This document shows, piece after piece, positions 27,841 to 46,146 of a DNA stretch of 64,000 nucleotides (its first letter is position 1; every line of letters begins with the position of its first letter). A program made the position numbers and the translations under genes. The DNA lies in NCBI GenBank assembly GCA_950097015.1, contig CATNEN010000038.1, positions 21,576,001 through 21,640,000 on the forward strand. Reading direction: 5' to 3'. A model generated the notes under the pieces. The model searched no databases. It was not told where the DNA came from and saw only the letters and a program-made list of their open reading frames with translations. The stretch is from Macrostomum hystrix (lineage: Eukaryota > Animalia > Platyhelminthes).

Positions 27841-29207
27841 TCGAAAAAATATCTAGCAGACACAATATGCGGAAGTTGGAAAAGTTTAAGACGAAACTTG
27901 AAGGCGAATATAAAAGTCTAGAGAAGTAGCTTTTTTAGCCGATCTTCTGGCGTCCATTAGATCATTTTTGAGTGTGGCGGCCGCGAATTTGAAGTCTTCG
28001 TTGCCGCCAACAATATTGTTTGTCTCCTCTACGATGCGATATTTCTCGATTCAGCCTCTGCTAGGCTTTTCCCCTAGAAACTGTACGTGGACTGCACGGC
28101 CTCGCTTATAGGCCTTGCTTTTTGGTGGTAAACAAACGATTGCAGGCCACAGATAATTCTCACCGGGCCAGTATGCGGAAACAAGACTTACCTAATTTAA
28201 TTTTGGCGCTCAGCGGCTTGTCGGCGGCCGCGCTGACCAGCTGCCGCTTGCGGCTGTTGTCGGAGCCTGCAGCGCTCTGTGACTTTTTAGCCGTTTTAGG
28301 CGTAGCCTGGGCAATTGTCAAATTTAGAAGTGATAGAAAAAATGCCTGCTAGTTCTAAAACTGTAGGTTCATGACTAATATTAGAATTAGTAGGCTTTGA
28401 TAAAGTTTAACAGATAAAGTCTACTTTTCATCGTTCACACTACAATGCTCCTATGCCCACTGTATAAGCACTAGCTGTCTTTCTATATTATACACTTGTA
28501 GTACGCGTAAATTTCGAAAAAAGTCTAAAATTTTATAATGCAATCAAACTCACTCTTTTATTGCGGCCGAAATTATTTTTTATACAATCGACGCCCGGCA
28601 CGCCGGTACGCCTCGGTATGGACCTGGTAGTGGGGCCATAGCCACATCGGTACTGTGATTTAGTCTGTCGCCCAGGACTTTGAGATCATGGCCTTCCATT
28701 AAACCCTGTAAATTATAATTGTTTTTTTAAGTAAACCTAATATAGAAGATAGGGAATTTCCCAAAATACGGAAAGGAGAACAATTACTCAAGATAATTGG
28801 CATTAGCAAATGCTAAATAAACTAAATTAGCAACAGGAGTTTTGGCTGATTTGAAAAATTGACCTGAAAACTCGAAAATGTGACTGACATGCTGAATGGG
28901 TGAGCAGTTGAATGTGAATGTGATGGAGAATACTGAAGCTTTGAACAAAGACTGTAACCAAGTCAATGAATAAGCAAATTAATGTTAAGACGAATTTCAA
29001 CTTACCCGAGTTTCAACAAACTTGCGAAAATCTGTGTTTGTCATGCCACTGAGAATCGGATTAAACTTTCTCGGTAGGCGGCAAATAACCTGCCAAAATG
29101 GCCATATGGAATTTTGAGCAAAGGCTTGTAGCTGCAGCCCCTTCGTTAATTCGCTCTGTAACAACGCGCTGTAGAAGCTGGCGGCACTCCATGACGTTAA
29201 TTTTTGC

Positions 29208-29893
29208 AGTAGTATGCAAGAGGGGGCTTCTAGGACAAAAATAATCGCAGCCTCCATTATCCACAAACCATTACTTTTATTATTCCCGAAGAGATCAGGA
29301 AAATAGGGTCCCCGCCTCTCTCTAAAAAACTCCGTCTCCATATTCTAAATTCTATACTTCCCATATCATTTTGTGAGTTGAATATCTAGGACAAAAATTA
29401 TCGCAGCCTCCTTAATAAACAAACCATTACCTTTATTCTTCCCGAAGGTTCCCCGCCAATAAAAAATCTGTCTCTACAGTTTGTGAACTTGGACAAAAAA
29501 AATTATCGCTGCCACTCCCTAAAAGATCATGCCCAAAATAGTGAACCTGCAAAAAGCGTGCCAAGACAATCAAATTAGCACTAAAATCCCAATCCCCAAA
29601 CTCAAGACCCCAAACTTAGGGTGCTCATCCTCCGAAAAAAAAATTTAATTCTCATTAAAAATGCTCCCAATCGTCTCTCCAGGATCTTATTACAAAAGTC
29701 ATGAGCCTAATTACAAGAGTAAATACCGATGCAAACAAGAATGCAGCGAGTACATGAGAAAATATTGGCCCAACGTCGATATCAATGTCCCTAATATTAA
29801 TCAAGCTCTCCAAAGACACTGGTTTCATAAGTATGGAGTAACCATAAAGGACTATGACAGCTACTATAACTTTGCAGAAATCATTAAGCAGCT
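29208..29893 (+). repeat. Polinton left TIR (686 bp)
   Basis: Reverse complement of 43947-44553 apart from one extra subrepeat and scattered differences. Confidence 0.93.
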
Positions 29894-29897
29894 ATAG
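29661..29897 (+). CDS. Small TIR-embedded ORF (78 aa), unknown function
   Basis: AAAAATG start like the other viral genes; the right-TIR copy carries CAA>TAA. Confidence 0.55.
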   Translation: MLPIVSPGSYYKSHEPNYKSKYRCKQECSEYMRKYWPNVDINVPNINQALQRHWFHKYGVTIKDYDSYYNFAEIIKQL

Positions 29898-30128
29898 ACT
29901 TTCGATACGCTTTAAGACTTCTAGACTGCATTAAAATCGATATTTTTACGTACAAGCGTATGATATTTTGCTGTGTGGTGGGTGGTGTTGAGCGGATTGG
30001 GTACGGCAGCTGTTTCTTGCCATAGTTCATTGCGCGAGCGGCGTTGGTAGTCACTCCCAGTTGGCTCTAGCCCCCCCCCAATACGCTACTTAAAGGAAGG
30101 TGTTGAATAGCCGCATGAGAACTCCACC

Positions 30129-30932
30129 ATGAGTCAAACCGGAACTTTTTTTTCAATAAACGGAATACGGTTTATCATGGCCTTGTCAAAAGAGACAAGA
30201 ATTGCAACGATTGCCGAACTGGCGGTCTCACTGTCATCTAAAGAAAGGTCGGCAATGGGAAGCAGACTGAGCAGCTGGAAAGAAGAAGAGTTGGTAAGGT
30301 TTCAGGCGAGCTTGGAAAAGCTTGAAGGTGTTCCGGTTAAGAAGAGGGCGCTTCCCAAGAAAAAGGAAGAGAGCGAGCGAGAGAGAGTTATTGCAAGGAT
30401 ATACGCGAAGCTGGAAGAGAATGAGAGTCGCGGTGTAAAGTTGTCTCTGGGTGCAATTTCCGATGGTCTCAACTTGGTCGCCACGAATTTGAATGGAACG
30501 ACAAAGGAAGACTTGGAAGCGAGGTTTAAGAAGCTGACCTATTCTATCGAGAACCTGTCAACTGCTAAGGCCATGATGCAGTTTGAACAGGGGCGCTTAA
30601 TTCAAGTTTTGGTTTACAAGCACAAAATGAATTTGGAAGAGCTCGCCACCACTTTCAACATCAGCAAGCGAACAGTGGGAGACTACGACAAATTTTACTC
30701 TCTCTGTATCACGTACCCAGGTCTAATATTTTCAAGCTACACAATGGGAACCCTGCTTCGCTATAAATCAGTGATTGAAGAGAAGGCAAAAATTGATGAA
30801 CGCTTTGCTGATATATTGAAGATGCAAATCGAGGGTATTTCCCTGGATGATCAATATGAGAAGGATATCAAGTGCTGGTATGAAGAAAGTAAGTACATAA
30901 CATTTTTGTTGCAAATTCTGAAAGAAAATTAG
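30129..30932 (+). CDS. Polinton accessory protein with coiled coil and HTH-like segment, possibly spliced to 30975-31024
   Basis: LEELATTFNISKRTVGDY helix-turn-helix pattern; CCACCATG start. Confidence 0.7.
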   Translation: MSQTGTFFSINGIRFIMALSKETRIATIAELAVSLSSKERSAMGSRLSSWKEEELVRFQASLEKLEGVPVKKRALPKKKEESERERVIARIYAKLEENESRGVKLSLGAISDGLNLVATNLNGTTKEDLEARFKKLTYSIENLSTAKAMMQFEQGRLIQVLVYKHKMNLEELATTFNISKRTVGDYDKFYSLCITYPGLIFSSYTMGTLLRYKSVIEEKAKIDERFADILKMQIEGISLDDQYEKDIKCWYEESKYITFLLQILKEN

Positions 30933-31200
30933 TATAAAACAAACAAAACAAGTCGAACAAACAAACAAATTTAGGCATAGGAGAAGAAGAAGACGAAGCG
31001 GCCACAGTGGAGGTCTTGAACTGATCAAGACGAAGTACTGACTTTTGAATGACTATTATCTATGTTAAACAGTGTTGGCTTTTTTTCTCATTATTCAGTG
31101 TGTTAAAAACTTAATATGCTCTTATTTGTACTGGCATTTTTTCGCCTTCAGTAGTCCTTTATCTATTGGTGGAAGCATGTATATCTTTCAAAGCGCACGA

Positions 31201-31380
31201 AAGAGGCTCTCATTGGTTGCATTAATTTGACGAAAGTTCGTAAAAATCATGCGCAGCATAAAGCGGCTCTCATTGGTTGCATTAATTTGACGAAAGTTCG
31301 TAAAAATCATGCGCAGCATAAAGCGGCTCTCATTGGTTGCATTAATTTGACGAACGTTCGTAAAAATCATGCGCAGCACG
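31201..31380. repeat. Three 60-bp direct repeats with CCAAT-like and palindromic cores
   Basis: Period 60; ACGAACGTTCGT palindrome at 31350-31361. Confidence 0.9.
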
Positions 31381-31446
31381 GGGAAAAAGCTTGCCCAGCT
31401 CAAGGATCCCCTGCCTAGCTTCAAAAGCACCCATTTAGTTCCTTGA

Positions 31447-31893
31447 TTAAACCCCTGCCTTATCAACCCCCAGCTCTTTCAGCAGTCCTCCTAGTTCCTT
31501 ACTTGGCGCATGCAACACAAAACCCACCCCACCAATCCCCAACCCCAACTTTGTCTTACCAAAAATAACAGCTTTAACTAGCTTCCGAGCGATCGATTCC
31601 CTCCACCCGCTTGAAGCCCCTATATTGTCTAGCATTCTGAGCATTTCTTTGTCCCAGCGAGTCTTCTCCTCTGGAAAATCCCTATACTTAATATCATGCC
31701 ACATACAGACAGAGTCTAGCTCGTTCACAGGCTCATGCCCAGGATTTGGATTATTGTTTTTATCTAGCTGTATTTCAAGCGGATTCAAAGGCCCGCAATA
31801 TTTGTAGCCGGGAATTGTCCAGCCTTTGTTTGCTTTTCGAAGCTTTTCTACCAGTCCATGTGAATCTAGTTTACCACCAAAGCGTTGCATCAT
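31447..31893 (-). CDS. Parvovirus VP1u-type phospholipase A2 protein
   Basis: PGYKYCGPLN Ca-loop and PVNELDSVCMWHDIKY catalytic HD motif. Confidence 0.88.
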   Translation of the reverse strand: MMQRFGGKLDSHGLVEKLRKANKGWTIPGYKYCGPLNPLEIQLDKNNNPNPGHEPVNELDSVCMWHDIKYRDFPEEKTRWDKEMLRMLDNIGASSGWRESIARKLVKAVIFGKTKLGLGIGGVGFVLHAPSKELGGLLKELGVDKAGV

Positions 31894-31919
31894 TTTTATA
31901 AAAAATTAAATAAAAAATA

Positions 31920-32909
31920 ATGGCAGATCAGAAACTTCAAAAGCTCTACTACAGCGACAAAGGATTCTTTGTAGGAAAAAATGCAGTCACCAAACTCGCA
32001 GAACTAAGTAATGAATCAAAACAAACAGTTGAAAGATGGCTCTCTAAGCAAGCAGTTTACCAAGTCTATTTCCCACCTGTTAAATTTACAAGACCTCACT
32101 TTAACATCTATAAACCTAATGAAGCGCACCAAGCAGATCTTCTGTTTCTCCCCAATGACTCAGGCTACAAGTATGCGCTCACAGTTATAGACATTGCCTC
32201 CAGATATAAAGAAGCCAGACCGCTTAAAACTAAGAAGTCAGAAGCAGTTGCAGCTGCCCTCCAAGACATTTACAAAAACTCACCGCTCACATACCCACAA
32301 ACCTTTATGACTGATCCTGGCAAAGAATTCATGGGTGCAGTCAAATCCCTTATGGAAAAGAACAATACGAAAATGCGCTACGGAAGAACTGAGCTTCATA
32401 GAGACCAGGCTTTTGTTGAAAGATTCAATCTAACTCTAGCAAAGAGACTTTTCACAAAGCAGACAGCTGAAGAGCTGAAACTAAAAAGTGGCCAATACTA
32501 TACCAAGTGGACAGAAAGACTCCCCGCAGTAATAAGTCAACTGAACAATGAAGTATCTCGAATGACAAACCTGAAACCAAATACTGCCATCAAACAAGAC
32601 ACAGTTGAATCAAAACATCCGATCTCCCAATTCCCATTTCCAAAGCTCCCCGGCGTTTATTCTCCGGAAGTTCTTACTAACTCTGAATTCGTTCGCTTCC
32701 TTTACTTACCAGGAGAGCTGGAGAAGGACACAAAGAGAAGAGCAACAGACCCATACTTTAGTCTTGATGTACATAAGATAAACAGGCATTTCACATCAGC
32801 ATCCGGTGATTACTATTTTCTATCCCAAGACTTTAATTCAAAAGCCCCCACACGATCATTCACAAGGGCTGAGCTTCTAGTGATTCCACATGACACAGAA
32901 ATAAATTAA
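31920..32909 (+). CDS. int: Retroviral-like DDE (rve) integrase
   Basis: HQADL, TVIDIASRY, TDPGKEF, VERFNLTL; intact, 329 aa. Confidence 0.95.
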   Translation: MADQKLQKLYYSDKGFFVGKNAVTKLAELSNESKQTVERWLSKQAVYQVYFPPVKFTRPHFNIYKPNEAHQADLLFLPNDSGYKYALTVIDIASRYKEARPLKTKKSEAVAAALQDIYKNSPLTYPQTFMTDPGKEFMGAVKSLMEKNNTKMRYGRTELHRDQAFVERFNLTLAKRLFTKQTAEELKLKSGQYYTKWTERLPAVISQLNNEVSRMTNLKPNTAIKQDTVESKHPISQFPFPKLPGVYSPEVLTNSEFVRFLYLPGELEKDTKRRATDPYFSLDVHKINRHFTSASGDYYFLSQDFNSKAPTRSFTRAELLVIPHDTEIN

Positions 32910-32928
32910 AAAAATTTTTTTAAATAAA

Positions 32929-33360
32929 ATGATTGAAACCAGAACCGTGAATAAAATTAGCCGAATTATCGACTCTAAGAAGCCAGGAGTTGTATCAATT
33001 AAAGGTGTCAGAGTCAAAGTAGATCCAATCCAGCATATGATCCATTGTAACAATCAAACACACAATATCACTGATGAGAAGACAGGCGGGATTCTTCCTT
33101 TGCTAACTCTTATCCCCATCATCGCAGGTGCTCTTGGTGCAGCAGGAGGTGTAGCCGGCGGAGTTGCATCAGCCGTGAAGGCTGGCAATGACAGAGCACA
33201 TCAACGAGAGATGGAGAATATCGCTAGAGAAAAAGGAGTCAGAATCGGAATGGGTAGTTGTGAATCTGATGAATCAGCTGATGAATCAGTCAGCAAATCA
33301 GAAATCGTTAAAGCCATCATGACACTGCATAAAGCAGGATTTACAATACTCCGGATGTGA
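32929..33360 (+). CDS. Adenovirus pX (pre-mu)-like virion protein
   Basis: KTGG|ILPLLTLIPIIAGALGAAGGVA resembles adenoviral pX (xRGG|ILPLLIPLIAAAIGA). Confidence 0.75.
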   Translation: MIETRTVNKISRIIDSKKPGVVSIKGVRVKVDPIQHMIHCNNQTHNITDEKTGGILPLLTLIPIIAGALGAAGGVAGGVASAVKAGNDRAHQREMENIAREKGVRIGMGSCESDESADESVSKSEIVKAIMTLHKAGFTILRM

Positions 33361-33483
33361 AAACAGAACAGAACAGAATCTGCTCTAATAACTATATTTA
33401 GTACTGTTGGTAGTAGTTTGCCATACTTTACACTTTACTTGAGGGTGACTACCCTAAATTTTTTTTATAAGTTTTCATTAAAA

Positions 33484-36400
33484 ATGCCTAAAGCAATTCC
33501 AGAAAAAAAAATTGTCGAATCTTTCTTTCAAAATAATTGTCCTCAAGCTCAATCGTTTCAACAAAAAAGTCAAGTCCTGCAAGAGCTTTGCAGGCAGAAA
33601 TTCAATCAAGATCCAGGCTACCTCGGGAGCTATGCAATACAGCATGAAATTATTAATCAGCTTCTGCATTCAGAGCAGTACACACCAGTGAAGAAGCCGG
33701 CGACTGAGCATCAACAAAAGAGCCGCAGCTTAGTCAATAAGTATGAGACAGTCACAGGTCAAAATGTGTCGAAATACCCACAGAATAAGCAAGAGCAAGA
33801 AGATCTAGAACGTACAATCCACCAGGTTGAAGCAGAGCTACAAACTGAAGACATTAAATTTGCACAGAGAAAATTCACAGAGTATTATATTGAGTATACA
33901 ATCCAGGAAGACACCACAAATTCCCAATCCGACATTTACGACTTCAAAGACAGAATTCAATCAGTAATTGATCACACACTGAAGTCACGTAAGACCTTCA
34001 AGCTTCAGTTATCATTCAAGATTGAATTTTACATGCCTGCAAAACCCACTGAGCGTCTTGAATACTACATGACTACTAAAGCTCTACCCTTTACTCCCAC
34101 TGACACACAGGATCCTTTTCTTCAAGAGATCAGTAAAAAGATTGACGCCTTTACTTCCAGAGGATCAGGTTGGGTTGTCAATGGCATTCAAAAAGCTACA
34201 GTAATGATCATGAAATATGACCCTCTCAAAGCTTCATCATATATTGAGCTCCCGAAAAAGCTAGCGAGTAAAAAGGCTTGCATCAATGTGCAAAATTATG
34301 ACCAATGCTGCGCACTATGGGTAGTTTGGTCTGCAATATTGTATGAGAAAGATCGAGCCCATACAGAGAGAACTTCTCATTATAAAATGTATTTTGACGC
34401 AAAACTTTTAGAATGCCATGCTAAAGGAATTTCCTTCAATAGAGGCGGCTTGGCAATCGATCAAATCCCAAAGCTAGAGGAAGTCTTTAACAATAAAATC
34501 AGAATCACAGTCTTTGAATGGAATGAGAAGAGCGAAAAAGTACAATTAGTCAGAGCCAGCAAAAACACGCTAGATCCTGAAGGTAGGCGTCGCATAGATG
34601 TCGATCTTCTAATCATAGGTGATTTGCGAGAAAATGCCCACTACGTTTGGATTAAAGATCTTTCCAGGCTCCTCCACAAGCAAATGAACAATCATCATGA
34701 ATCGGTAGCAATCTGCCGTCTTTGTCTGAAGCATTATAGTGGACCCGATCGTGATGAAAAACTTAAAGAGCATGAACTGACCTGTGAAGATCATCCAACC
34801 AACTGCACACTTCCAACGGATAAGCATCTCAGATTTAAGAGTTATCACAAGATGGAGAAGCTCCCGTTTATAGTATACGCTGACTTTGAATGCACTATAA
34901 ACCCTGAAACCAATAAGCATGTCCCAAATTCTGTTGCGTATCTCTTTATTGGAAGAGACTCTTTTATTTGCTCAAACTATTTCTTAGGTGACCAGTGTGT
35001 TGAACAATTCATTTACTCGATGATGGAATTACAGAAAAATGTTGCTGCCATTCAGCCTGTTCCAATAACTATGTCCGATCAAGATGAAATCGACTTCGGA
35101 TCTGCAACTTATTGTCACATTTGCCGAAAGCTATTAACACCCTGCGACGCCAAAAACCACACAGTCAGAGACCACGATCACTTCACAGGAAAATTTAGAG
35201 GGGCAGCTCATAACACCTGTAATCTGAAACTACAGAAAAACATCCACGACCTTACCATTTTCTTCCATAACGGAAGGGGATATGATTATCACTTATTGGT
35301 TGAGAAGCTGGGTATGATACCAGGCATTAAACTAGATTGCATCGCAGAGAACAAAGAAAAGTTCAAGTGCATCGATATTAAGCAAGATTCAGGCAAGATT
35401 AAGATCAAAGATTCATTCCAGTTTCTGGCCGCCAGTCTCGATGCTTTGAGTAAAAATCTCACCGATGACCAATGTACTTATACCAAGATGCTGGCAGATT
35501 CCCTCAATCCTACCCCAGATTCATTTAAGCTTCTTAGAAAGAAAGGTGTCTACCCTTATGAATGTAATCGTGTCTTTGCAGAACCACTACCACCCAAGGA
35601 CAAGTTCTTTTCAAAGCTAACAAACTCTGGGATTTCTGATGAAGATTATGAGCATGCTCAGACTGTTTACAAACATTTTAACTGTCGAAACTTTCTTGAT
35701 TATCACATGCTTTACCTTTGGACTGATGTCTTTCTTCTAGCTGATGTATTTGAAACCTTTAGAAAGACCTGGTACTCTGCTTATGGTCTTGACCCCGCTC
35801 ATTATGTGTCTTTGCCTGCTACCAGTTGGGAATCATTGCTTAAAATGAAATGGGATCAAAATCCCAACTGGTACATCGAGCTGCTTACAGACATAGACAT
35901 GTACAACTTTATAGATTCATCTAAGAGAGGTGGCATCTCTATTTGTGTCCATAGGTATGCAAAGGCAAACAATCCGTATCTAGAAGACTATGATAAAGAA
36001 AAGCCTTCAAACTACATCCTTTACCTGGATGCCAACAACCTCTATGGTTGGGCTATGAGCCAAGATTTACCTGTTAGAGATTTTAGGTGGCTAACAGAAT
36101 GTAACACAGACTTTTCAATACCTGCGATCTATGAAGTTGATGTTGAAATCCCATGGGAACTTCACGACTATTTCTCTGACTTTGCCCCCTTCCCTGAGAA
36201 CATTAACTGTCCAAAGATAATCCAGTACAATGATGGAAGCTGGCAGCTATCTGAAAAAGAAAAAGAGCGTGTGAAAAAGTTAACACAAAATCTCATGAAC
36301 AAGACACGCTATAAAATCCACTACAAGCTGTTGCAGTATTTTATCTCCCTAGGTTGTAGGGTCACGAAAGTTCACAGAGCTCTCGCATTCACAGAAGAAG

Positions 36401-37275
36401 CGTGGATGAAGCCATACATAGAAAAAAACACCCAGTTTACAACTAAAGCAACAAACAGCTTTGACAAGGACCTGTTCAAGCTTGCAAACAACTCTGTCTA
36501 TGGCAAGACCCTAGAAAACGAACGCAACCGCACGAACCTGAAGCTCGTTACCTGTTATGAGCCTGGTGTCATTCAGAAAAGTTTATCAAAGCCCACTTTC
36601 AAAGAGCTTCATATCTTTAATGATTACTTGGGTGCCATACTGTTCTATAAGACTAAAGTTACCCTATGCAAGCCGATATTCACAGGTGTGACTGTACTTG
36701 ACGAATCGAAGCGCCTGATGTATGAAGTCTTCTATGACATGAAGCGGCAATATGGTGAACAACTGAAACTTCTATATACTGACACAGACTCCCTAATTCT
36801 AAACATACAGACTGAGGATGTCTATCAGGACATGTTGAATCAAAAACATCTGTATGACCTATCCGAATATCCAGAGTCCTTCAAGACTTTGAAAGGCGAT
36901 CAAGTACGCGACACTGGAAATCAAAAAGTTGTAGGAAAAATGAAGGATGAAACGGCTGGCACCCTCATTACAGAGTTTATCGGTTTGAGGGCAAAGTCCT
37001 ATTTTGTAAAAAGTTGTAAGTCTACCATTAAAAAATCAAAAGGAATCCCAAAACATGTTGTTAAAAACGATCTCCATGAAGCTTCATACAAGGACGCATT
37101 GATCAATAATAAAAGTACTACTCATGAATTTATGAAACTGCAGTCTAAGAACCACAATATTCACACAATTCAACAGAAAAAGATAGGCCTCTCAGGTGCC
37201 GATAACAAACGACATATCTTTGATGACAACATTAACAGCCTACCATTTGGACACTATAGATTAAATAATTTGTAA
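33484..37275 (+). CDS. polB: Protein-primed family B DNA polymerase (1263 aa from ATG 33484) with N-terminal TP/vOTU-like region and HNH/EndoVII insert
   Basis: Exo YADFE, HNGRGYD, YLWTDV; Pol LDANNLYG, KLANNSVYGK, YTDTDS; CHIC..RDHDH..GAAHNTCN insert. Confidence 0.96.
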   Translation: MPKAIPEKKIVESFFQNNCPQAQSFQQKSQVLQELCRQKFNQDPGYLGSYAIQHEIINQLLHSEQYTPVKKPATEHQQKSRSLVNKYETVTGQNVSKYPQNKQEQEDLERTIHQVEAELQTEDIKFAQRKFTEYYIEYTIQEDTTNSQSDIYDFKDRIQSVIDHTLKSRKTFKLQLSFKIEFYMPAKPTERLEYYMTTKALPFTPTDTQDPFLQEISKKIDAFTSRGSGWVVNGIQKATVMIMKYDPLKASSYIELPKKLASKKACINVQNYDQCCALWVVWSAILYEKDRAHTERTSHYKMYFDAKLLECHAKGISFNRGGLAIDQIPKLEEVFNNKIRITVFEWNEKSEKVQLVRASKNTLDPEGRRRIDVDLLIIGDLRENAHYVWIKDLSRLLHKQMNNHHESVAICRLCLKHYSGPDRDEKLKEHELTCEDHPTNCTLPTDKHLRFKSYHKMEKLPFIVYADFECTINPETNKHVPNSVAYLFIGRDSFICSNYFLGDQCVEQFIYSMMELQKNVAAIQPVPITMSDQDEIDFGSATYCHICRKLLTPCDAKNHTVRDHDHFTGKFRGAAHNTCNLKLQKNIHDLTIFFHNGRGYDYHLLVEKLGMIPGIKLDCIAENKEKFKCIDIKQDSGKIKIKDSFQFLAASLDALSKNLTDDQCTYTKMLADSLNPTPDSFKLLRKKGVYPYECNRVFAEPLPPKDKFFSKLTNSGISDEDYEHAQTVYKHFNCRNFLDYHMLYLWTDVFLLADVFETFRKTWYSAYGLDPAHYVSLPATSWESLLKMKWDQNPNWYIELLTDIDMYNFIDSSKRGGISICVHRYAKANNPYLEDYDKEKPSNYILYLDANNLYGWAMSQDLPVRDFRWLTECNTDFSIPAIYEVDVEIPWELHDYFSDFAPFPENINCPKIIQYNDGSWQLSEKEKERVKKLTQNLMNKTRYKIHYKLLQYFISLGCRVTKVHRALAFTEEAWMKPYIEKNTQFTTKATNSFDKDLFKLANNSVYGKTLENERNRTNLKLVTCYEPGVIQKSLSKPTFKELHIFNDYLGAILFYKTKVTLCKPIFTGVTVLDESKRLMYEVFYDMKRQYGEQLKLLYTDTDSLILNIQTEDVYQDMLNQKHLYDLSEYPESFKTLKGDQVRDTGNQKVVGKMKDETAGTLITEFIGLRAKSYFVKSCKSTIKKSKGIPKHVVKNDLHEASYKDALINNKSTTHEFMKLQSKNHNIHTIQQKKIGLSGADNKRHIFDDNINSLPFGHYRLNNL

Positions 37276-37291
37276 CATAATTTGTAAAAAA

Positions 37292-37690
37292 ATGACAACC
37301 AATATTTATTTAGAAGAGCTAGCTCAGCAATTAAAAATCCCAAACTTCCGAGGCGTCTTTATGAAGGATACACTGCCAGAAACCCCACTAGAAAAAGAAT
37401 GTGGAGTCATGAACTTTGACCCTGCAGAAAAGCCAGGTTCTCATTGGGTTTGTTGGGTAATTGATCCAATCCGTAAACACAAGTACTATTACTTTGATAG
37501 CTATGGAACTGCTGTACCTGAACAACTGAGAAATTATATGACTCATATGAGACATAAAATATACCGCTCAGACTTCATACTTCAGGGTATTAACAGTGAT
37601 ATTTGTGGTGAGCTATGTATGACTGTTTTGTATGCAATGACCCACACCCGAAAGAGTTACAAAGAAATCATTTTAGGGCTGAAAAAATAA
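37292..37690 (+). CDS. Adenain-like cysteine maturation protease
   Basis: GSHWV, YFDSYG, Q..SDICG (H/D/Q/C). Confidence 0.93.
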   Translation: MTTNIYLEELAQQLKIPNFRGVFMKDTLPETPLEKECGVMNFDPAEKPGSHWVCWVIDPIRKHKYYYFDSYGTAVPEQLRNYMTHMRHKIYRSDFILQGINSDICGELCMTVLYAMTHTRKSYKEIILGLKK

Positions 37691-37696
37691 TTTTTT

Positions 37697-37753
37697 TTAG
37701 GTCCTGTTAGGTCCTGTTAGGTCCTGTTAGGTCCTGTTAGGTCCTGTTAGGTC
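37697..37753. repeat. 10-bp repeat (ttaggtcctg) x5 between convergent genes
   Basis: Direct reading. Confidence 0.9.
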
Positions 37754-38373
37754 TTGTTCATTTTCGCTACTTTCGCCACATGCTGTTTGAACACATTCTC
37801 CAGATCATTTCTTAGCTGGCTCATTTCATCAATGGTATTTAGATTAAGCCTAACTCGCTGCTCATAGAGGTCTTGAATGTTTTTAAACTCATCCTCTGAA
37901 ATGAACTTGTCCTCAATCGCCTTTGAGATGTACCCGATGATAGAGTTTTGAACTGATTTCTCGTTTGTTTGCTTCGCATGTAGATGCTTTAGCTTTTGTC
38001 GTCTGTTCCTTGATAGTACTCCTGTAACTGCTGAAATCAGACCACATGCGGCGCCAGCAACTCCGAGTGGAATGGCGGCGATTGGCGCAGTGATTACAGG
38101 AAGTGTTGAAACAGCAGCTGCTGATCCCGATAGAACAGATACAGATCCAAGAAACATATTAAGGTAATCGAAGACCTTGCACTGGCTATTATAGCGCTTC
38201 AGTTTCTTAGTATTATGATCAATTTGCCGTTCAATATCATCTCGCATCTTTTGAATCTCCACCAATCTGAATTGCTGCGAGTTGCAAGTGAAAGTTGGGT
38301 AAAGGGGTTGTTGTGGGCTTGGGTTGTTTGGAGGCGCACTAGGTTCATATAGAGAGTTAATTTTTTCAGACAT
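37747..38373 (-). CDS. Membrane-hairpin protein with N-terminal PSAP/LYP motifs (possibly the adintovirus 'GasderminX' class)
   Basis: LYEPSAPP..PLYPTF, coiled coil, ~45-aa Gly/Ala-rich hydrophobic hairpin, basic stretch. Confidence 0.7.
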   Translation of the reverse strand: MSEKINSLYEPSAPPNNPSPQQPLYPTFTCNSQQFRLVEIQKMRDDIERQIDHNTKKLKRYNSQCKVFDYLNMFLGSVSVLSGSAAAVSTLPVITAPIAAIPLGVAGAACGLISAVTGVLSRNRRQKLKHLHAKQTNEKSVQNSIIGYISKAIEDKFISEDEFKNIQDLYEQRVRLNLNTIDEMSQLRNDLENVFKQHVAKVAKMNKT

Positions 38374-38407
38374 TTTTTTTCAAACAAAAAAAAATTATAT
38401 AAATTTT

Positions 38408-39136
38408 TTATGACCTTTCTCGCAAATCTGTTGCACGCCTTGCCGCCTCCCTTGATGCCTCTTCTGATGGTCCATCAGATACTCTTGCTTCTTCAATGTC
38501 AATGTCTGGCAGATTGTGCAGTCTCTCTAGTCGGCCGAGTCTTCTTTTCGTTTTCCCCCAGTCGTTGTATATCCTATTCAAATACTCAGTGTGTCTTGTT
38601 ACGTTTAGCCCCATGGGTCTTATTGTTTCCTTTGTTTCATTTGCTAGTCTCTGAAGAGTTGTTATATCTGACTCTGCTGCTGTGAGTCGCGAACTCAATC
38701 TATCATGCACAGTGCTTGATCTTAGCATAAAGGCTTCTAAATTTCGAACTTTATTTGAATTTTCTGTTACTCTTTCTTCCACCAAGTTTGCTCGATTATT
38801 AATGGCAGTTCTCAGAGTGGCGATGTCTGATCTTAGAGTGGCGATGTCTGATCTCAGAGTAGGTATCGCTGCAACAAGAGTATCCCGATCATGAACAAAC
38901 TGTACATATAGTATGTCAATCTCTTCCTTCCGCTTTGCTACGCTCAACCGCAGGTCTTCCATGTTTATTTGTCGTTGGTGTGTTGCCCGTTCTAGGGCTT
39001 TCAATCGATCTTTAATGAGTTTGATTTCTGGAATTTTTTCGTCAACATTTATATAACGCCTGTCAAGGTAAGAAACTTGAGCACTAGTGAGTGTGCTTCC
39101 GCGATCCAACGATTCACCTGCAAAATTAATAGACAT
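38408..39136 (-). CDS. Coiled-coil protein (fibre/stalk-like?), unknown function
   Basis: Heptad pattern, TLRSDIA repeated; AAAAATG start. Confidence 0.7.
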   Translation of the reverse strand: MSINFAGESLDRGSTLTSAQVSYLDRRYINVDEKIPEIKLIKDRLKALERATHQRQINMEDLRLSVAKRKEEIDILYVQFVHDRDTLVAAIPTLRSDIATLRSDIATLRTAINNRANLVEERVTENSNKVRNLEAFMLRSSTVHDRLSSRLTAAESDITTLQRLANETKETIRPMGLNVTRHTEYLNRIYNDWGKTKRRLGRLERLHNLPDIDIEEARVSDGPSEEASREAARRATDLRERS

Positions 39137-39161
39137 TTTTTAATAGAAATTTTAAATTAAT

Positions 39162-39962
39162 TTAAAATACAGTTCTGTTTTCTTTGTTGATCATCACAAA
39201 CTGGTAAGGTTGATTCCACTTGTCATAGCAAAGATTAACGAATTACTCCTGTGAAATCTTTCTGTTGGAGTTTTTTGTTGGATTTACAAAATAGGCAGAC
39301 GCAATGACCTCATTGTAAAATCTTTTTAGCCTGTCCTGTGGAATTGTTGGAAACAGGAGGATCAGATTGCAGCTCCCACGAATTGTTTTGTTCGGGAGCT
39401 CGAACCAGTTCTGGGCAATGTAAATTACGTTACAATTGTTGTGCCGTCCTCTTGTAAAATAGTTTTCTATCTGCTTCTGTGGGCCTGTCATGCAATCATC
39501 AAAGACAATCAAATGTTTTCTCCCCTTTTCTAGCTCATCTGGTTGGGGTAGAAGTTTGGTCTTAGGATCAACCTGCGGATCTCCATAGGTGAACACTTTA
39601 ATGTTCTGCCATTTTTCATTGTCTTTGAGGTACTTTGCATATTCGGCAGCTACAATTTCTGGGTTACTGTGAAGGCTCATTTGGTTATTAAAACATTGAA
39701 TAATGTGTTCTTTGTGCAGTCTGTTTTGAAGTCCAGAGATCAACATTTTATACTCATCTTGATACAGGGTGGGAGAGTAGATGTGCAGAGTGTCATAGTC
39801 GATAAAGCCAGGTCTAAGAAGCATGTTAAAGACTCTGAATGTTTTACCTGAACCTGATGAACCAACAACAATGCATCTGAAGTGACCCGGGATTGACTCA
39901 TGATGAGAAAACTTAATCTGATTACGTGTCCAGTGAGGATTGAAGTCATTTGAAAATTCCAT
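39162..39962 (-). pseudogene. A32/FtsK-like packaging ATPase with an in-frame TAA at 39243-39245
   Basis: GSSGSGKT, LIVFDD, RGRH..IYIAQ; the frame continues after the stop as FVNLCYDKWNQPYQFVMIN. Confidence 0.88.
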
Positions 39963-40005
39963 TTTTCTATGATGAAAAAAAATTAAAAAAAAGTAAATCA
40001 TTTAT

Positions 40006-40132
40006 AAGATGTGTCTTTTTGGGACTTAGATGTGTCTATTTGGGACTTAGATGTGTCTTTTTGGGACTTAGATGTGTCTTTCTGGGACTTAGATGTGTCT
40101 TTTTGGGACTTAGATGTGTCTTTTTGGGACTA
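40006..40132. repeat. 21-bp repeat x6 (agatgtgtctttttgggactt) upstream of the ATPase
   Basis: Direct reading. Confidence 0.9.
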
Positions 40133-40174
40133 GTCTTGTACCCTTACATGTCTTGTACCCTCGAAAAGTACCCT

Positions 40175-40576
40175 TTAGTCAAATTTGAAACCACTTCCTT
40201 TTTTAATGCTAGCTATGCTAGCTCTCATCTTCTCGTAGATTGCGGGGTCCACACTGTCTGGATTCGGGGCCAGCGGAGCCAATGGTGCCAATGGGGCCAA
40301 GGGTGGCTGAATATCTTGTGTTACAGTATCCTTTATCTTTTTAGCCGCAGTGACAACGCTTCCCACTGATTCAGCCACGTTCTTAATATTATCTTTGTTC
40401 TCACTAATGACTTTAAAGACCCGAGCACCCTGTGCAATCATGTCAGCAAGACCATTCCCGGAGCGTTCTTTCCTCGGATAGTGGCCTGCTGGGAAAAGTC
40501 CGGATCCACGCTTAATTAGATTAAGTTCCTCCTTGTCATAGTATTTGTCCACGTCTTTTTCGAAAATAATCAGCAT
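40175..40576 (-). CDS. Putative virion core/membrane-active precursor with G-x-G cleavage motifs
   Basis: KRGSG|LF, RSGNG|LA, KKGSG|FK; amphipathic helix after GNG. Confidence 0.65.
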   Translation of the reverse strand: MLIIFEKDVDKYYDKEELNLIKRGSGLFPAGHYPRKERSGNGLADMIAQGARVFKVISENKDNIKNVAESVGSVVTAAKKIKDTVTQDIQPPLAPLAPLAPLAPNPDSVDPAIYEKMRASIASIKKGSGFKFD

Positions 40577-40593
40577 TTTTATTAGGGAAGAAA

Positions 40594-41787
40594 TTATTTT
40601 TTGTTAAAACGTGAAAGCAGAAGCTCTCTTGCCCGTTTGTCGATATACTTCTTTTCCATCATTTTGTCCAGGATGTTGACAAATTCTTTTCTATTTTCGT
40701 CTCTCATGCCAGTCTTTGCAGCTCCAAGAAGAACAGCCACTCGCTTATAGATGTCAGAAATTCCTGTTCCAGATTTGGATCCTGTTCCAGGTGGGGTTGG
40801 CTGTTGTTGAAATGGGCTTTCAAATGACTGGTCAGTTCCGGATGAAGCTGAAGTGTCAGGTAGGGGTGTGTGCTGGGGTGTGAAAACTTTTTGCTTGATT
40901 CTATTCATTCGGTCTGGGGCGAATTGCTCCAAGTGATGCCACTCTGTTGGGTATTGTTCCTTATATTGAGCTACTTTCATGGGGTCGGACTGCTCGAGTT
41001 GACTCAGCACTTGTTCTTCTGTAAAATGTTGCTGTTGTTGTGGTGGTTGTTCTGGTGATTCGGGTTGTTGTTGTGGTGGTTGCTGTTCTAGATATTTTAT
41101 GGCATCTTCTTGATCTGGCAAACCGAACCATTGTTTAAAATGCTTGTACTTTTTGAATCTAGTCAGGATGACACTTTTGTCATGCATTATTTTCAGAACT
41201 TGTGGGACCTTTAGTATTTCTATATCTCTAGCAAGAGCAAAACTCACTAGATCTCTATAGTTCTTTAGCTGCTTGTCCGAAATTTTCTCTTGGTTCTTAG
41301 TCATAAAATTCAGTAAGGTTTCTGTGTAAATTATTATCTTAGTTTCTGAGCCTTTGACAACAGAAATATGGTTCTTGTTTATGTCGATATAATATTCCAC
41401 TGGTTCATTATAAATGTTTTTTCTCCACATACTTATTCCAAATACATATTTCCCATCATGTTCTACACGTTCTACTGGTCCAAAAATGTTATCCGTTACT
41501 TTTAGTGATTGTGATTGATGCGATTCTGCAGATTGCTGTATCTGCGGTGCTTCTGGAATTTTGTCCAAAGCCTTTTGCACCTGGGTTTCCTGTATGTCGT
41601 CAATAGTTTCTTTGACTTGATCAATATTTTTCTTAGCTTCTCCATACCCGGGTTTATGAAACTCTGTGGCTGCTTGGACAAACTCATTGTAGGATTGTTG
41701 CTCCTTATTGATTAGCCCGGTAACTCTCTTTTCTGCTTGTGCTAGCTTCTCCAATTCAGATATTTGGTGCGCATTTTTTCGCTTCAT
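40594..41787 (-). CDS. Conserved Polinton-type uncharacterised protein (397 aa)
   Basis: C-terminal GTG|ISDIYKRVAVLLGAAKTG..EFVNILD resembles the Polinton 'RL.LL.A...AGN' domain. Confidence 0.7.
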   Translation of the reverse strand: MKRKNAHQISELEKLAQAEKRVTGLINKEQQSYNEFVQAATEFHKPGYGEAKKNIDQVKETIDDIQETQVQKALDKIPEAPQIQQSAESHQSQSLKVTDNIFGPVERVEHDGKYVFGISMWRKNIYNEPVEYYIDINKNHISVVKGSETKIIIYTETLLNFMTKNQEKISDKQLKNYRDLVSFALARDIEILKVPQVLKIMHDKSVILTRFKKYKHFKQWFGLPDQEDAIKYLEQQPPQQQPESPEQPPQQQQHFTEEQVLSQLEQSDPMKVAQYKEQYPTEWHHLEQFAPDRMNRIKQKVFTPQHTPLPDTSASSGTDQSFESPFQQQPTPPGTGSKSGTGISDIYKRVAVLLGAAKTGMRDENRKEFVNILDKMMEKKYIDKRARELLLSRFNKK

Positions 41788-41819
41788 TTTTTATTATATT
41801 TTTTTTTAGTTTAAAAAAA

Positions 41820-43106
41820 ATGAACGACCCACTGACACCAGTTTTCTACAAAATTAACAAGCCTATTTTGAGTGATGATAGCACAATCAAAGCGACTCAA
41901 GTAAGAGTTCCCAGTCAGGAAAATCAGAATGAAACTAATATTGGTCCTGGTCAAACACTGACATTCACCTACAATGGATGTTCGTCTCTGGTTAGTGTGC
42001 ACAGTCTTAAGAGCGGCTTCCATATGACATTTCAATTCAAGACAAAGGGAGGTGCGGATGCAGCTCATGCTAACGTTGACAAGCATGATGCAGATGTGGC
42101 TCTGATTAGTAACTTTTGGGCGTACATGTTCAAGGAGTTTAGTGTATCGAATGGGAGCACAGAGTTGGAGCGAATCGCCAACTTTGGAATTGTCTATGAC
42201 GCTCATTGTTTGATCGAGAATCCAGATTTTATTCAGTTGGGGAGTGGTGCAGGTTTCATTGCAGATGAAAAAGAAGGAGGTATCAATGACAGTGGCTATA
42301 AAAAGAGGAAGAAGAGATACAACTATGCATTGCAAGGTGCTGATGATGCTGCTAAGAACCCGCTGTATCGGTCTGTTGATGTATTCGTACCACTGAGATT
42401 CATGAGTGGATTCTGTAATACATTTAATCGACTGACTAGTAACTTCAGCTACACCTTTAAGATGACTAGAGATGATCGCAGTAGAGTGTTGTGGACTGGG
42501 GCGGACCACACTGGGATGGAAGTGAAGCTAACCGGAATCGAGCTGTATTTGGAAGTCATTGAGCCAAAGACCGCACTAAAAGCAGATTATCTCAAGGCAA
42601 TAGAGAAGGACATTGATGTCGCCTACACGGCCTACATGTGTCGAGATGAGCGAAACGAAACCAGAACAAACATCTGCATTAAAGAGGGATCATGCAGCAA
42701 TCCAAGGTATATTATTATTAACCTGAGAAACCCAAATAACATTATACGCTACATGCATGGAGACGTGCGGTCCATTCAGCATGAAATCAGTGATAATCTT
42801 TACCCTGCACTGCCACAAAATGGAAATTTCAGTCAGAACAAGATTAGCAAATTTTACAGCGAGTTGGTCGACTTGGCTGTGAAAGAGAACAATGGAATTG
42901 CTATCACTGCTCTTCAATATGGAACTCTTTATCCGATGTTTGGCGCTGATGTGTCTGCCAGACAAATGCCTACTGATAACAGCCCTGTGAATATCGTGAC
43001 TAACATTGAGAGGACTGCCGCAACTGCTGTTGACCTGTACATTATCTATGCGTTCGAGAGGAAGGTGAAGCTTAACATGATCAACAATTCATCCAGTAAA
43101 GTTTAA
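41820..43106 (+). CDS. Double jelly-roll major capsid protein (428 aa from ATG 41820)
   Basis: DDSTI N-terminus, VPLRFMSGFC, YPMFGADVS motifs, size, and position next to mCP. Confidence 0.85.
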   Translation: MNDPLTPVFYKINKPILSDDSTIKATQVRVPSQENQNETNIGPGQTLTFTYNGCSSLVSVHSLKSGFHMTFQFKTKGGADAAHANVDKHDADVALISNFWAYMFKEFSVSNGSTELERIANFGIVYDAHCLIENPDFIQLGSGAGFIADEKEGGINDSGYKKRKKRYNYALQGADDAAKNPLYRSVDVFVPLRFMSGFCNTFNRLTSNFSYTFKMTRDDRSRVLWTGADHTGMEVKLTGIELYLEVIEPKTALKADYLKAIEKDIDVAYTAYMCRDERNETRTNICIKEGSCSNPRYIIINLRNPNNIIRYMHGDVRSIQHEISDNLYPALPQNGNFSQNKISKFYSELVDLAVKENNGIAITALQYGTLYPMFGADVSARQMPTDNSPVNIVTNIERTAATAVDLYIIYAFERKVKLNMINNSSSKV

Positions 43107-43131
43107 ATTTTTTTTTTTCGGGGCTAAAAAA

Positions 43132-43947
43132 ATGGAAGCGATTGCTGAAAGACTAAATAATATTATTTCTCACTCTAAGGAGAGCATTCCTATTACAATA
43201 GCTGGGCGAATTAATGACTCAAACGGGATATTTGTTGAAAAATTAGAGCAGGCGATTCGCCTGGATCCAAGTGCTAATTACCATGTATATCTTAACGACT
43301 TCACTGGTTGGTCAAACGTTCCCAATGTGACGGCAGCAAATAATAAGTTTCATTACAAATGGAAAGGTGTAGCAGCAGCAGAAGCTGTGGTATTCCCTGT
43401 GAGCACGCAAAGTGTGGATACCTACAATTACTTTCTAGAAAGTGTTTTTACTAAAAGAGGCCATTTTAAGACACCCAATGCGAGTAAGCCAGAGCAGAAA
43501 CTGTTCCCTGTCAAACTATCCTATGATCTCACTGTAATGAGAGTGGTCATGCAAGTTCACAAAGATGCTGAGGTTGAATTTAAAGATGACACTTGGTATA
43601 GGGAATTGGGATTCGAGAAGAAAGTGTATAAGGCAGAATCCGGGGAAAGCGGCTTGTTCTTAGCACCCAATATCGCAGACATTGTAAAGGGTTTGAATAT
43701 TCTAATCAGAAGTAATCTCAGTCTTGATTGGGTGTTTAAGGGAAAGCGAACGAATATTTTGTACAACATCTCAAACTCTGTTGCTGGAGGACAGATGCTG
43801 GTAGAGAAACCAAATCCAGTGAAAAGAGTTGTGCTAAGTAATAAGGAGATTCACGAGATTGTGCTGCAGTTTGAGACGGAAGATGGTGTTGGCGTTGATT
43901 TCAACGGTGAAGAGTTTGTATTGACGTTGGTCATTGAGAGAATGTAA
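43132..43947 (+). CDS. Minor capsid (penton) protein
   Basis: IRLD...Y.VYL...SNVPNVT..NNKFHY and C-terminal VDFNGE.F.LTL.I patterns. Confidence 0.85.
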   Translation: MEAIAERLNNIISHSKESIPITIAGRINDSNGIFVEKLEQAIRLDPSANYHVYLNDFTGWSNVPNVTAANNKFHYKWKGVAAAEAVVFPVSTQSVDTYNYFLESVFTKRGHFKTPNASKPEQKLFPVKLSYDLTVMRVVMQVHKDAEVEFKDDTWYRELGFEKKVYKAESGESGLFLAPNIADIVKGLNILIRSNLSLDWVFKGKRTNILYNISNSVAGGQMLVEKPNPVKRVVLSNKEIHEIVLQFETEDGVGVDFNGEEFVLTLVIERM

Positions 43948-44553
43948 GCTGCTTAATGATTTCTGCAAAGTTATAGTAGCTGTCATAGTCCTTTATGGTT
44001 ACTCCATACTTATGAAACCAGTGTCTTTAGAGAGCTAGATTAATATTAGGGACGTTGATATCGACGTTGGGCCAATATTTTCTCATGTACTCGCTGCATT
44101 CTTGTTTGCATCGGTATTTACTCTTGTAATTAGGCTCATGACTTTTGTAATAAGATCCTGGAGAGACGATTGGGAGCATTTTTAATGAGAATTAAATTTT
44201 TTTTCGGAGGATGAGCACCCTAAGTTTGGGGTCTTGAGTTTGGGGATTGGGATTTTAGTGCTAATTTGATTGTCTTGGCACGCTTTTTGCAGGTTCACTA
44301 TTTTGGGCATGATCTCTTAGGGAGTGGTTTGTGCATTATGGAGGCTGCGATAATTTTTTTTGTCCCAGATATGCAACTCACAAACTGATGAGGGATGTTA
44401 AAAGTAGAGAATTTAGAATATAGAGACGGAGTTTTTTAGAGAGAGGCGGGGACCCTTTTTTCCTGATCTCTTCGGGAATAATAAAAGTAATGGTTTGTGG
44501 ATAATGGAGGCTGCGATTATTTTTGTCCTAGAAGCCCCCTCATGCATACTACT
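43947..44553 (-). repeat. Polinton right TIR (607 bp)
   Basis: Inverted copy of 29208-29893; begins at the last base of the penton stop codon. Confidence 0.93.
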
Positions 44554-45106
44554 TTTTGCGGATCCATATTCTGAATCCGTATTGTGGCATTCCACCTGAA
44601 GGTAAAGTTAGGTTGCTCTTGTCTTTTGAATTTGTTGTGACGCAGCCCTCACCTCTGTCCTATCATTTTCATCTCTTTCTCATTCCCTGCCCCGCCAGTC
44701 AGCTAGCGTGCCCCCCACCCCAGTTCATATGTATCGATCGCCCCAGCCTACCCCTAATTGTTGAATGTACATCTCACCCGCCTTGCGCGCTCTCTTACCC
44801 CACCCCCTGTTTGCTTTGTCGCTAAAGCCCGGAGTTCTGTGGTGCCAACCTAGCTATATAGTTGTGCCCAGTTAATTAGAGCCTGCTAACCTCGTCTGCC
44901 CACCTGTTACGAGACTGTCTATTTTAGTGCAAACAAAACCGACCGGCTACTAACTGTTGCATCAGCCGAGATACTGTTATTCTGTTGTTGTTTCTCTGTC
45001 ATTCCTCCGGACGCGGGTCGAGCGGCGCTTTTCTGGGGACCTGGGGAGTCGCAGCTTACCCAACCTAGCTGTAGGCCTACCTGCACATTTAGTGAACCAC
45101 AACAAC

Positions 45107-45213: not shown

Positions 45214-46146
45214 ATGGCTTTAGACAATCTGATCGATGCCCTGACGGCAAGGATCCAGGAGCAGCTGCATGTTGCCCAGCGTGTTCCCCGTCCTAACAAG
45301 TATGTCCCAACTCAGGACTTTGCCCTGTGGAGGCAGCAATTTGACACTTATTGTGAGGCCGCCCGGATCCCCGAGGATCAGCGGAAGCAAAACTTGCTCG
45401 ATTTGCTTGACTTTGGCACGGCATTTAAGGCAGTGGCCAACCTCGAGCTAGACGAAGATTTAGAGTACGATGACTTCGTTGCTCAGCTCGAGGCTCGCTT
45501 TACTCAGAATCGCACAGCCCAGGACTACAAGACAGAGTTTCAGGGCAGGAATCAGGGAGATGGGGAAGCTCTGGAGGATTACGCTGACGCTCTCAGAGAG
45601 CTCATGCGCAAGTCTTATCCAACCCAACGCGTCGAACAGAGAGATGAGCTGGCGAAGGACCGATTTTTGAAGGGCATCCGGGTTCCAGAGAGGGTGCTTG
45701 AAAATGTCTTGCTGCAGGACCCCGGCACGCTGCAGGCTGCTGTCCAGCGTGTGCGCCAGACCCTGGCTTCAATGAAACTGCTGGACGGAAAGCGCTCTGT
45801 CCACGCTGTGAACAGTCAGGCAGAGAGCCAAGTAGCTAGCATGGCTGCTGAGATTGCTGGCTTGAAGGAGGAGCTTGCGCAGCTGAAGCGGGGAGGGGCA
45901 TTGACCCAAACAGCTCAGTCGGACCCGCCGCCGAGACAAGCCGCAGCTGCTCGCACCGACAGGTCGTGCGGTCGGTGCCTTCAGTCGGGACACTCGACTG
46001 CGGAATGCAGAAACTCGGTGGTTTGCCTCGCCTGCGGTCAGTCAGGTCACACTCGCGCCCGGTGCCAGGGTCGTCAGGCTGGACCGGTGCAGGGAAACGG
46101 GATGAGGGCCCGGCCGGGCCAGCGTCCTGGGCCCTACCGACAGTAA
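45214..46146 (+). CDS. gag: Gag with two CCHC zinc knuckles
   Basis: CGRCLQSGHSTAEC and CLACGQSGHTRARC; intact, 310 aa. Confidence 0.9.
   Translation: MALDNLIDALTARIQEQLHVAQRVPRPNKYVPTQDFALWRQQFDTYCEAARIPEDQRKQNLLDLLDFGTAFKAVANLELDEDLEYDDFVAQLEARFTQNRTAQDYKTEFQGRNQGDGEALEDYADALRELMRKSYPTQRVEQRDELAKDRFLKGIRVPERVLENVLLQDPGTLQAAVQRVRQTLASMKLLDGKRSVHAVNSQAESQVASMAAEIAGLKEELAQLKRGGALTQTAQSDPPPRQAAAARTDRSCGRCLQSGHSTAECRNSVVCLACGQSGHTRARCQGRQAGPVQGNGMRARPGQRPGPYRQ
46092..46135 (+). promoter_or_regulatory. -1 ribosomal frameshift signal
   Basis: G GGA AAC heptamer in the gag frame, 6-nt spacer, AGGGCCCGG/CTGGGCCCT stem; the -1 frame is the protease ORF. Confidence 0.8.

Follow-up and report, generated by a model that had tools for sequence, protein, structure and literature searches.

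The window, by which we mean the whole 64,000-nucleotide stretch of DNA analysed here, contains a complete 15.3 kb Polinton (29208-44553) flanked by a 6 bp target duplication (TTTTGC at 29202-29207 and 44554-44559), with terminal inverted repeats whose three longest blocks show 97-99% complementarity. The gene hallmarks of a Polinton/adintovirus are present: family B DNA polymerase (PolB), retroviral integrase, A32 ATPase, adenain and double jelly-roll capsid protein. The features of the element are as follows:

29208..29894, no strand, left terminal inverted repeat, starting AGTAGT (repeat comparison)
31447..31893, minus strand, parvovirus-type phospholipase A2 (PF08398, E 1.5e-14)
31920..32909, plus strand, retroviral-type integrase (PF00665, E 2.2e-9)
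32929..33360, plus strand, adenovirus protein X-like core protein (PF05829, E 1.3e-5)
33484..37275, plus strand, family B DNA polymerase, 1263 aa (assigned from polymerase motifs that can be read in its translation)
37292..37690, plus strand, adenain-type maturation protease (PF00770, E 8.7e-5)
37747..38373, minus strand, 208-aa open-reading frame of the adintovirus 'SLATT'-labelled family (family link and AlphaFold2 model)
38408..39136, minus strand, 242-aa coiled-coil protein directly upstream of the preceding frame and on the same strand (sub-threshold coiled-coil families only)
39243..40001, minus strand, A32-type packaging ATPase (PF04665, E 4e-6)
41820..43106, plus strand, double jelly-roll major capsid protein (PF21738, E 5.5e-5; BLASTP E 4e-16 to the capsid protein of contig L001, described below)
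43132..43947, plus strand, probable minor capsid protein (from size and place; no Pfam match)
43947..44553, no strand, right terminal inverted repeat (repeat comparison)

The Pfam match within the polymerase frame is limited to an endonuclease VII insert. Towards its 3' end the ATPase frame is interrupted by a stop, behind which ~26 further codons are open in the same frame, and this copy of the element may be defective for packaging, the other core genes being open. A 267-aa open-reading frame at 30129-30932 (plus strand) has a weak helix-turn-helix match, lacks the A/T-rich start context of the element's genes and is poorly covered in related sequencing runs; it is probably a variable accessory gene.

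The 208-aa protein begins MSEKINSLYEPSAPPNNPSPQQPLYPTF, and the parts named by the first-pass annotation, PSAP and LYP motifs in an N-terminal tail followed by a long helix, two hydrophobic segments and a basic stretch, are all present in the sequence and in an AlphaFold2 model:

38332..38343, minus strand, PSAP, residues 11-14, TSG101-type late-domain motif (conserved in the family)
38290..38304, minus strand, LYPTF, residues 24-28, a form of the ALIX-type motif that the family has as [LI]YPx[LIV]
38167..38286, minus strand, residues 30-69, first long helix, coiled-coil-like (alignment and model)
38011..38166, minus strand, residues 70-121, uncharged Gly/Ala/Ser-rich predicted hairpin (alignment and model)
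37969..38010, minus strand, residues 122-135, basic segment following the hairpin (positive net charge in all 71 aligned sequences)
37885..37929, minus strand, residues 149-163, conserved IS..I.D..IS..EF helix-turn-helix (64 of 71 members)

The model, built on a 71-sequence alignment, has a mean pLDDT of 82.6 and a pTM of 0.62 (with 10 sequences the model had reached a pLDDT of only 62); it leaves residues 1-29 without regular structure and places helices at 30-89, 97-155 and 160-207, with a turn of ~7 residues between the two hairpin helices. The first long helix starts with a conserved [FY]RL..I and is basic at its membrane-proximal end, the turn of the hairpin is short and carries an almost invariant proline (P97), and the motif at residues 149-163 resembles an EF-hand loop in its latter half. 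Residues 70-121 contain zero charged residues in 52 and are 44% Gly/Ala/Ser, with a net charge of +4 before and +6 after them; across the 71 aligned sequences the hairpin spans 44-52 residues with a median of 3 charged, and 68 of them have a net positive flank ahead of it. On the Kyte-Doolittle scale, the first hydrophobic segment is marginal (1.51 here; 31 of 71 members reach 1.6) and the second clear (2.06; 69 of 71). The hairpin is predicted either to cross the membrane as two helices or to be re-entrant. Because the flanks are basic and a hydrophobic N-terminus or signal peptide was found in 0 of the 71 family sequences, both ends of the protein are predicted to face the cytosol, whether the hairpin crosses twice or dips in, and a non-cytosolic N-terminus, which the first-pass annotation had named as a refutation of its claim, appears unlikely. 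An A/T-rich run precedes the ATG and was considered as a late-gene promoter; we rejected this and take the run as support for the start codon only, because nearly all genes of the element share it. A further short sequence in the tail, NSLY[ED] at residues 6-10 (38344-38358, minus strand), is almost invariant in this protein's sub-clade only and may be a tyrosine-based signal.

Relatives were collected in two ways. Word-indexed searches gave 10, 25 and 92 matches, comprising 98 distinct proteins, and a search without a word index gave 5,083 clusters (50% identity) at E <= 0.001, with 1,756 at 1e-10 and 335 at 1e-30. The sub-clade of our protein aligns to the main clade with an hhalign probability of 99.25. 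The only informative name among the relatives is 'TPA_asm: SLATT [Hydra adintovirus]' (DAC81555.1), which matches the family profile at E 1.5e-51 when excluded from the alignment and our protein at 27% identity pairwise (E 4e-12); like our protein it carries both motifs, as LYPDL and PSAP. By sequence, then, the protein is a member of the adintovirus 'SLATT'-labelled family. In the available part of PMC8502044 that name occurs in a figure legend and map only, and its main text nowhere uses the terms 'late domain', 'ESCRT', 'PSAP', 'egress' or 'envelope'. The protein scores below the cut-off of every Pfam family (SLATT_1 at 13.3 bits, against 26.3), and SLATT_1 matches 2 of 71 family members at E <= 0.1. 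Solved structures yielded no match by sequence or by Foldseek against the PDB, the phage collection held no family match, and PHROGs gave weak scattered matches only. An identity as GasderminX or Cupiennin was dropped on the names of the relatives, of which the only informative one is 'SLATT'.

To the bacterial dynamin-like LeoBC profile (PADLOC), 47 of 71 members show a match (best E 6.8e-9) via residues 40-203 of our protein, always at profile positions ~413-574 of 601 and at 16-22 bits in one comparison and for our protein itself. With no GTPase domain and a weak match to the C-terminal part of the profile, the protein does not qualify as a dynamin-like LeoB/C; the match could stem from a membrane paddle of the re-entrant kind, or from no more than a likeness in composition.

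We counted [LIVM]YPx[LIVMF] and P[ST]AP in the tail and in the rest of each protein, against shuffles of the tail. The word-indexed set comprised our protein and the 98 matches, with cluster members P0026-P0061 omitted as near-copies; in it 86 of 99 tails carried the YP motif, which none of the 99 proteins had elsewhere (shuffle mean 0.73), and 68 of 99 tails carried P[ST]AP, which one of the 99 had elsewhere (shuffle mean 0.43). Thinning to <60% core identity left the YP motif in 25/29 and P[ST]AP in 17/29, and thinning to <45% left 13/15 and 8/15. Because a word-indexed set could favour shared motif words, the count was repeated on matches found without the word index, namely the 143 new representatives among the best 150 of the 5,083 matches (7 known ones were dropped). 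In this second set, drawn from the best 150 of 5,083, the YP motif was present in 101 of 143 tails (shuffle mean 0.86) and P[ST]AP in 49 (shuffle mean 0.72), with both motifs in 44 and either in 106; outside the tail each was found once in 143, the P[ST]AP case being a mis-parsed tail. Representatives that passed the score cut-off on the core alone retained the YP motif in 63 of 102 cases and P[ST]AP in 32 of 102. The strict form [LM]YPx[LI] was found in 51 of 143, about half of the family's YP motifs starting with I or V, and ASAP or ATAP variants occurred in 12 of 57 YP tails that had no strict PSAP. Neither motif was present in 37 of 143 representatives, which shows that the core can occur in their absence; in 29 of the 37 the tail is shorter than 12 residues, part of these being fragments and part apparently naturally short.

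The motifs are also mobile. Their order varies (18 vs. 49 in the word-indexed set, 17 vs. 27 in the second set), at least three order changes are forced by well-supported branches of a core-only tree of 36 chosen rows, and P0017 carries its PSAP at the C-terminus instead. To be kept and yet to move is typical of short docking motifs. The two late-domain motifs are a real, family-wide feature of the tail, and their absence from homologues, named beforehand as a refutation of the egress claim, was not observed: both are strongly conserved, mobile and confined to the tail. The first-pass annotation had also called LYPTF an imperfect ALIX match, and rightly so. The last residue of the YP motif in the second set is L in 81, I in 12, V in 8, another residue in 4 and F in 0 of 105, and because terminal F is absent from those 105 motifs the LYPTF of our protein is atypical. 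PSAP and LYPTF arose jointly in 7 of 200,000 shuffles of its tail. PPxY, considered as a third late domain, was found in 9 of 143 (2.7 expected), mostly at the SAPP-LYP junction, and was not counted.

Independent loci were sought with DNA patterns drawn from the protein core only, not from the motifs, and these patterns found three, which we refer to as L001, L003 and L004; other core-only scans gave no further loci, one of them re-finding L001. The tail in L001 carries IYPDL and PTAP and that in L003 IYPKL and PSAP, so both motifs are present in 2 of 2 such loci with an intact start, L004 being cut before the tail. Among open-reading frames of >100 aa, the family gene is the sole one with either motif in L001 (1 of 17) and in L003 (1 of 16). 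In both it lies between the ATPase and capsid genes on the same strand, and L004 has the same downstream order. Phospholipase A2 is likewise encoded in L001 and, by eye, in L003. On L001:1-16818, an adintovirus-like contig, there are genes for PolB, capsid, ATPase and protease and one that is fibre-like, but integrase and inverted repeat were not found within 16.8 of 17.6 kb. L003:1-14689 and L004:1-3162 are Polinton contigs inside bacterial metagenome-assembled genomes, and are probably mis-binned.

Sister copies of the reading frame were compared in the contigs of four of 10 runs. Synonymous changes made up 16 of 35 among the listed differences, against 22% expected (p 0.002), in a test that is crude in that it covers listed differences only, treats sites that are not independent and ignores transition bias. 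In the linker (codons 16-21) one sister contig differs at six sites and has gained three insertions of one base; one linker change reads as a stop when taken alone and sits within this indel cluster. No change falls in the motif codons among the listed differences.

Among the nearest functional likenesses that we found is NS3 of bluetongue virus, an orbivirus: like the protein predicted here, NS3 is a small membrane protein with two hydrophobic segments, N-terminal late domains, a coiled coil and basic motifs. As described in the available text of PMC7409164, NS3 of this non-enveloped virus drives non-lytic release and has viroporin-like activity. No homology to it was found (Orbi_NS3 matches 2 of 71 members, best E 0.053; Foldseek E 0.22), and the two differ in that NS3 pairs PSAP with PPRY whereas the Polinton family pairs P(S/T)AP with YPxL, in that NS3 has a 21-residue glycosylated loop whereas the Polinton family has a tight turn, and in that orbiviruses are RNA viruses whereas Polintons are integrating DNA viruses. 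Hepatitis E ORF3 is a further late-domain analogue. In Banna virus NSP4 a LYPNL is followed four residues on by PTAP, and the protein binds ALIX-V and TSG101-UEV in vitro, mutually exclusively, with an ALIX affinity >300-fold weaker than that of a syntenin-2 peptide (PMC10132805, available sections). Two family members, P0009 (LYPNLNPSAP) and P0001, have nearly this arrangement; Banna virus is unrelated and is likened here by motifs alone.

In overall architecture, the SLATT proteins of Polinton-like and giant viruses and the bacterial SLATT 2TM effectors, to whose superfamily our protein may belong, likewise consist of a helix, two hydrophobic segments and a helix, and SLATT-labelled giant-virus proteins match our model in Foldseek at E 0.007-0.09. 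The best Foldseek matches were to uncharacterised proteins of invertebrate iridoviruses (S6DF61, A0A068QKD3 and A0A5B8RH66; E 1e-6 to 1e-4), which align over the full length at 17-22% identity, and the neighbours in the Atlas were nucleocytovirus, Preplasmiviricota and mollusc clusters. A frog iridovirus buds via ESCRT with other proteins, in one of which ASAP bound TSG101, according to the accessible part of PMC4880917.

P(S/T)AP binds TSG101-UEV and YPx(n)L binds ALIX-V (PMC4880917 and PMC10159163, in the parts available), the latter motif being defined with n=1-3 (PMC4880917, same part) and its flanks being reported as tolerant (PMC8231873, available part). On these consensus sequences the family's [LI]YPxL probably binds the ALIX V domain and P(S/T)AP, with as much confidence, the TSG101 UEV domain; for the LYPTF of our protein, ALIX binding is slightly less likely than not. 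From the conserved, mobile, tail-confined motifs and the likely cytosolic N-terminus we therefore infer that the tail would recruit ESCRT, a reading that is well supported. By analogy with NS3, and without homology to it, we lean towards the view that the protein is a membrane adaptor likely to recruit ALIX and TSG101 for non-lytic release. Its predicted hairpin would insert in a host membrane with both ends cytosolic, and the disordered tail would bring ESCRT-I and ALIX to whichever membrane holds the protein. ESCRT-III would then cut a bud pointing away from the cytosol, at the plasma membrane, an endosome or the inner nuclear membrane, and new particles would leave wrapped in host membrane without lysis. 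The most speculative step is that the C-terminal helices might touch the capsid, a contact that orbivirus NS3 makes with its C-terminus. No fusion protein was matched by Pfam among the element's genes, and because the element appears to lack one, wrapped particles would need to lose their membrane. Two points weigh against release: a phospholipase A2 is already among the element's genes, and late domains could equip a protein for entry or turnover instead. More tentatively, animal-type Polintons, and perhaps invertebrate iridoviruses, may share a dedicated hairpin budding factor, docking on ALIX and TSG101, that couples capsids of the double jelly-roll type to ESCRT for a non-lytic release of quasi-enveloped particles.

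A different, and in our judgement unlikely, function would be that of a viroporin- or holin-like pore that kills the cell or makes it permeable for lytic release, the motifs serving only to sort, time or clear the pore or to block ESCRT membrane repair. The Gly/Ala-rich, only moderately hydrophobic hairpin would suit a pore, as would the SLATT label, the weak matches to 2TM effectors and the existence of family members without the tail, and lytic egress or abortive infection has been proposed in print (10.64898/2026.10.13.758929, available portion); however, two ESCRT adaptor motifs kept over long distances and re-arranged exceed what a simple degron needs, Foldseek matched no pore-forming fold in the PDB, and the scores lie below the Pfam SLATT thresholds. 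Since NS3 is reported with both activities (PMC7409164, as above), which also speaks for a pore, this function is partly compatible with release. The motifs might otherwise act during entry, where a protein packaged in the virion would insert in the endosomal membrane and use or block ESCRT there. Adenovirus protein VI acts at entry with its PPxY motif, and the family gene lies among virion genes in L001, L003 and L004. Pore-based endosomal escape has been proposed for the SLATT proteins of cryptophyte Polinton-like viruses, which favours such a role, but the argument in the available text of that paper (PMC12220804) rested on the absence of lipases, whereas phospholipase A2, the usual entry candidate, is present in the window's element as well as in L001 and L003. 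Moreover, with 52 uncharged residues between basic flanks, the hairpin marks what looks like an integral membrane protein, which would be hard to pack in a lipid-free capsid, and we regard a role in entry as improbable.

A shade less probable still is control of the host, with the protein as an ESCRT adaptor or decoy that routes host membrane proteins such as immune receptors to multivesicular bodies, or that builds an assembly compartment. Toxoplasma GRA14, a membrane protein with both motifs, acts in this way (PMC10159163, available part), and the match to the part of LeoBC that inserts in membranes, weak but consistent, hints at membrane shaping; yet that match may be compositional, the ~7-residue turn of the AlphaFold2 model leaves the hairpin almost without a luminal loop with which to engage a target, and the position of the gene follows the capsid module. 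That the motifs are accidents of a Pro-rich tail, or bind partners other than ALIX and TSG101, is very improbable. The tail is indeed Pro-rich, LYPTF is imperfect and the major capsid protein also contains LYPAL and LYPMF, but shuffling gave <1 motif-bearing tail against 49-101 observed in the 143 representatives, and the listed sister-copy changes fall in linker codons 16-21 and not in the motif codons. The capsid motifs were themselves considered as late domains and rejected: they align to MFPVT and LFPIF in L001 and, on these equivalents, are structural.

The first-pass annotation had further held that an ESCRT-dependent or viroporin exit was not known to be described for Polintons, and of this one part stands: we did not find a late-domain tail in print, but the family is already labelled SLATT and pore and lytic-egress roles have been published. 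A link between Polintons and late domains or ESCRT was not found in the literature covered, including the available part of 10.1101/2025.02.07.637071, with subscription journals and preprint supplements outside that scope, and literature pairing 'Polinton' with 'ESCRT' consisted, in the parts available, of general papers only. The term 'ESCRT' is absent from the accessible text of PMC8502044, 10.64898/2026.06.19.733378, PMC12220804, 10.64898/2026.10.13.758929, PMC11161782, 10.1101/2022.07.12.499685, 10.1101/2025.10.09.676808 and PMC11071296. Polinton virions are barely observed, and ideas on their exit in the available parts of PMC12220804, 10.64898/2026.10.13.758929, PMC8097293 and 10.1101/2022.07.12.499685 are guesses at a pore or at lysis, or concern a fusogen specific to nematodes; the last of these sources reports that nematode Mavericks encode a fusogen and proposes enveloped particles, and the non-enveloped state that the first-pass annotation gave to this virus is an assumption. 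Pore roles for SLATT-domain viral proteins are also proposed in 10.1101/2025.10.09.676808 (available part). The family and the type of mechanism are known already; what we did not find described is the two together in Polintons, as a late-domain membrane protein of NS3-like type.

The conserved pair of ESCRT motifs predicts membrane-wrapped particles, which would shift the search for them to vesicle fractions. Insect cell lines are known to shed adintovirus particles (PMC8502044). If non-lytic release is correct, an NS3-like exit module would exist in integrating DNA viruses, across over a thousand sequence clusters, and Polintons would have a route into germ cells and other species. A very large family without annotation (5,083 clusters at E <= 0.001), along with the iridovirus proteins that resemble it, would then also acquire a function.

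Some further features of the DNA were recorded. Between the converging stops of the protease and SLATT-family genes lies a 10 bp tandem repeat of ~5.5 copies (37698-37752), 31 bases of which are skipped in the contigs of three runs. Contig depth in run X1 is greater in the element than in its left flank, a difference that is not a copy number. To the right of the Polinton, a broken Gypsy-like retroelement (45214-48848, plus strand) retains, by eye, pieces of gag, protease and reverse transcriptase.
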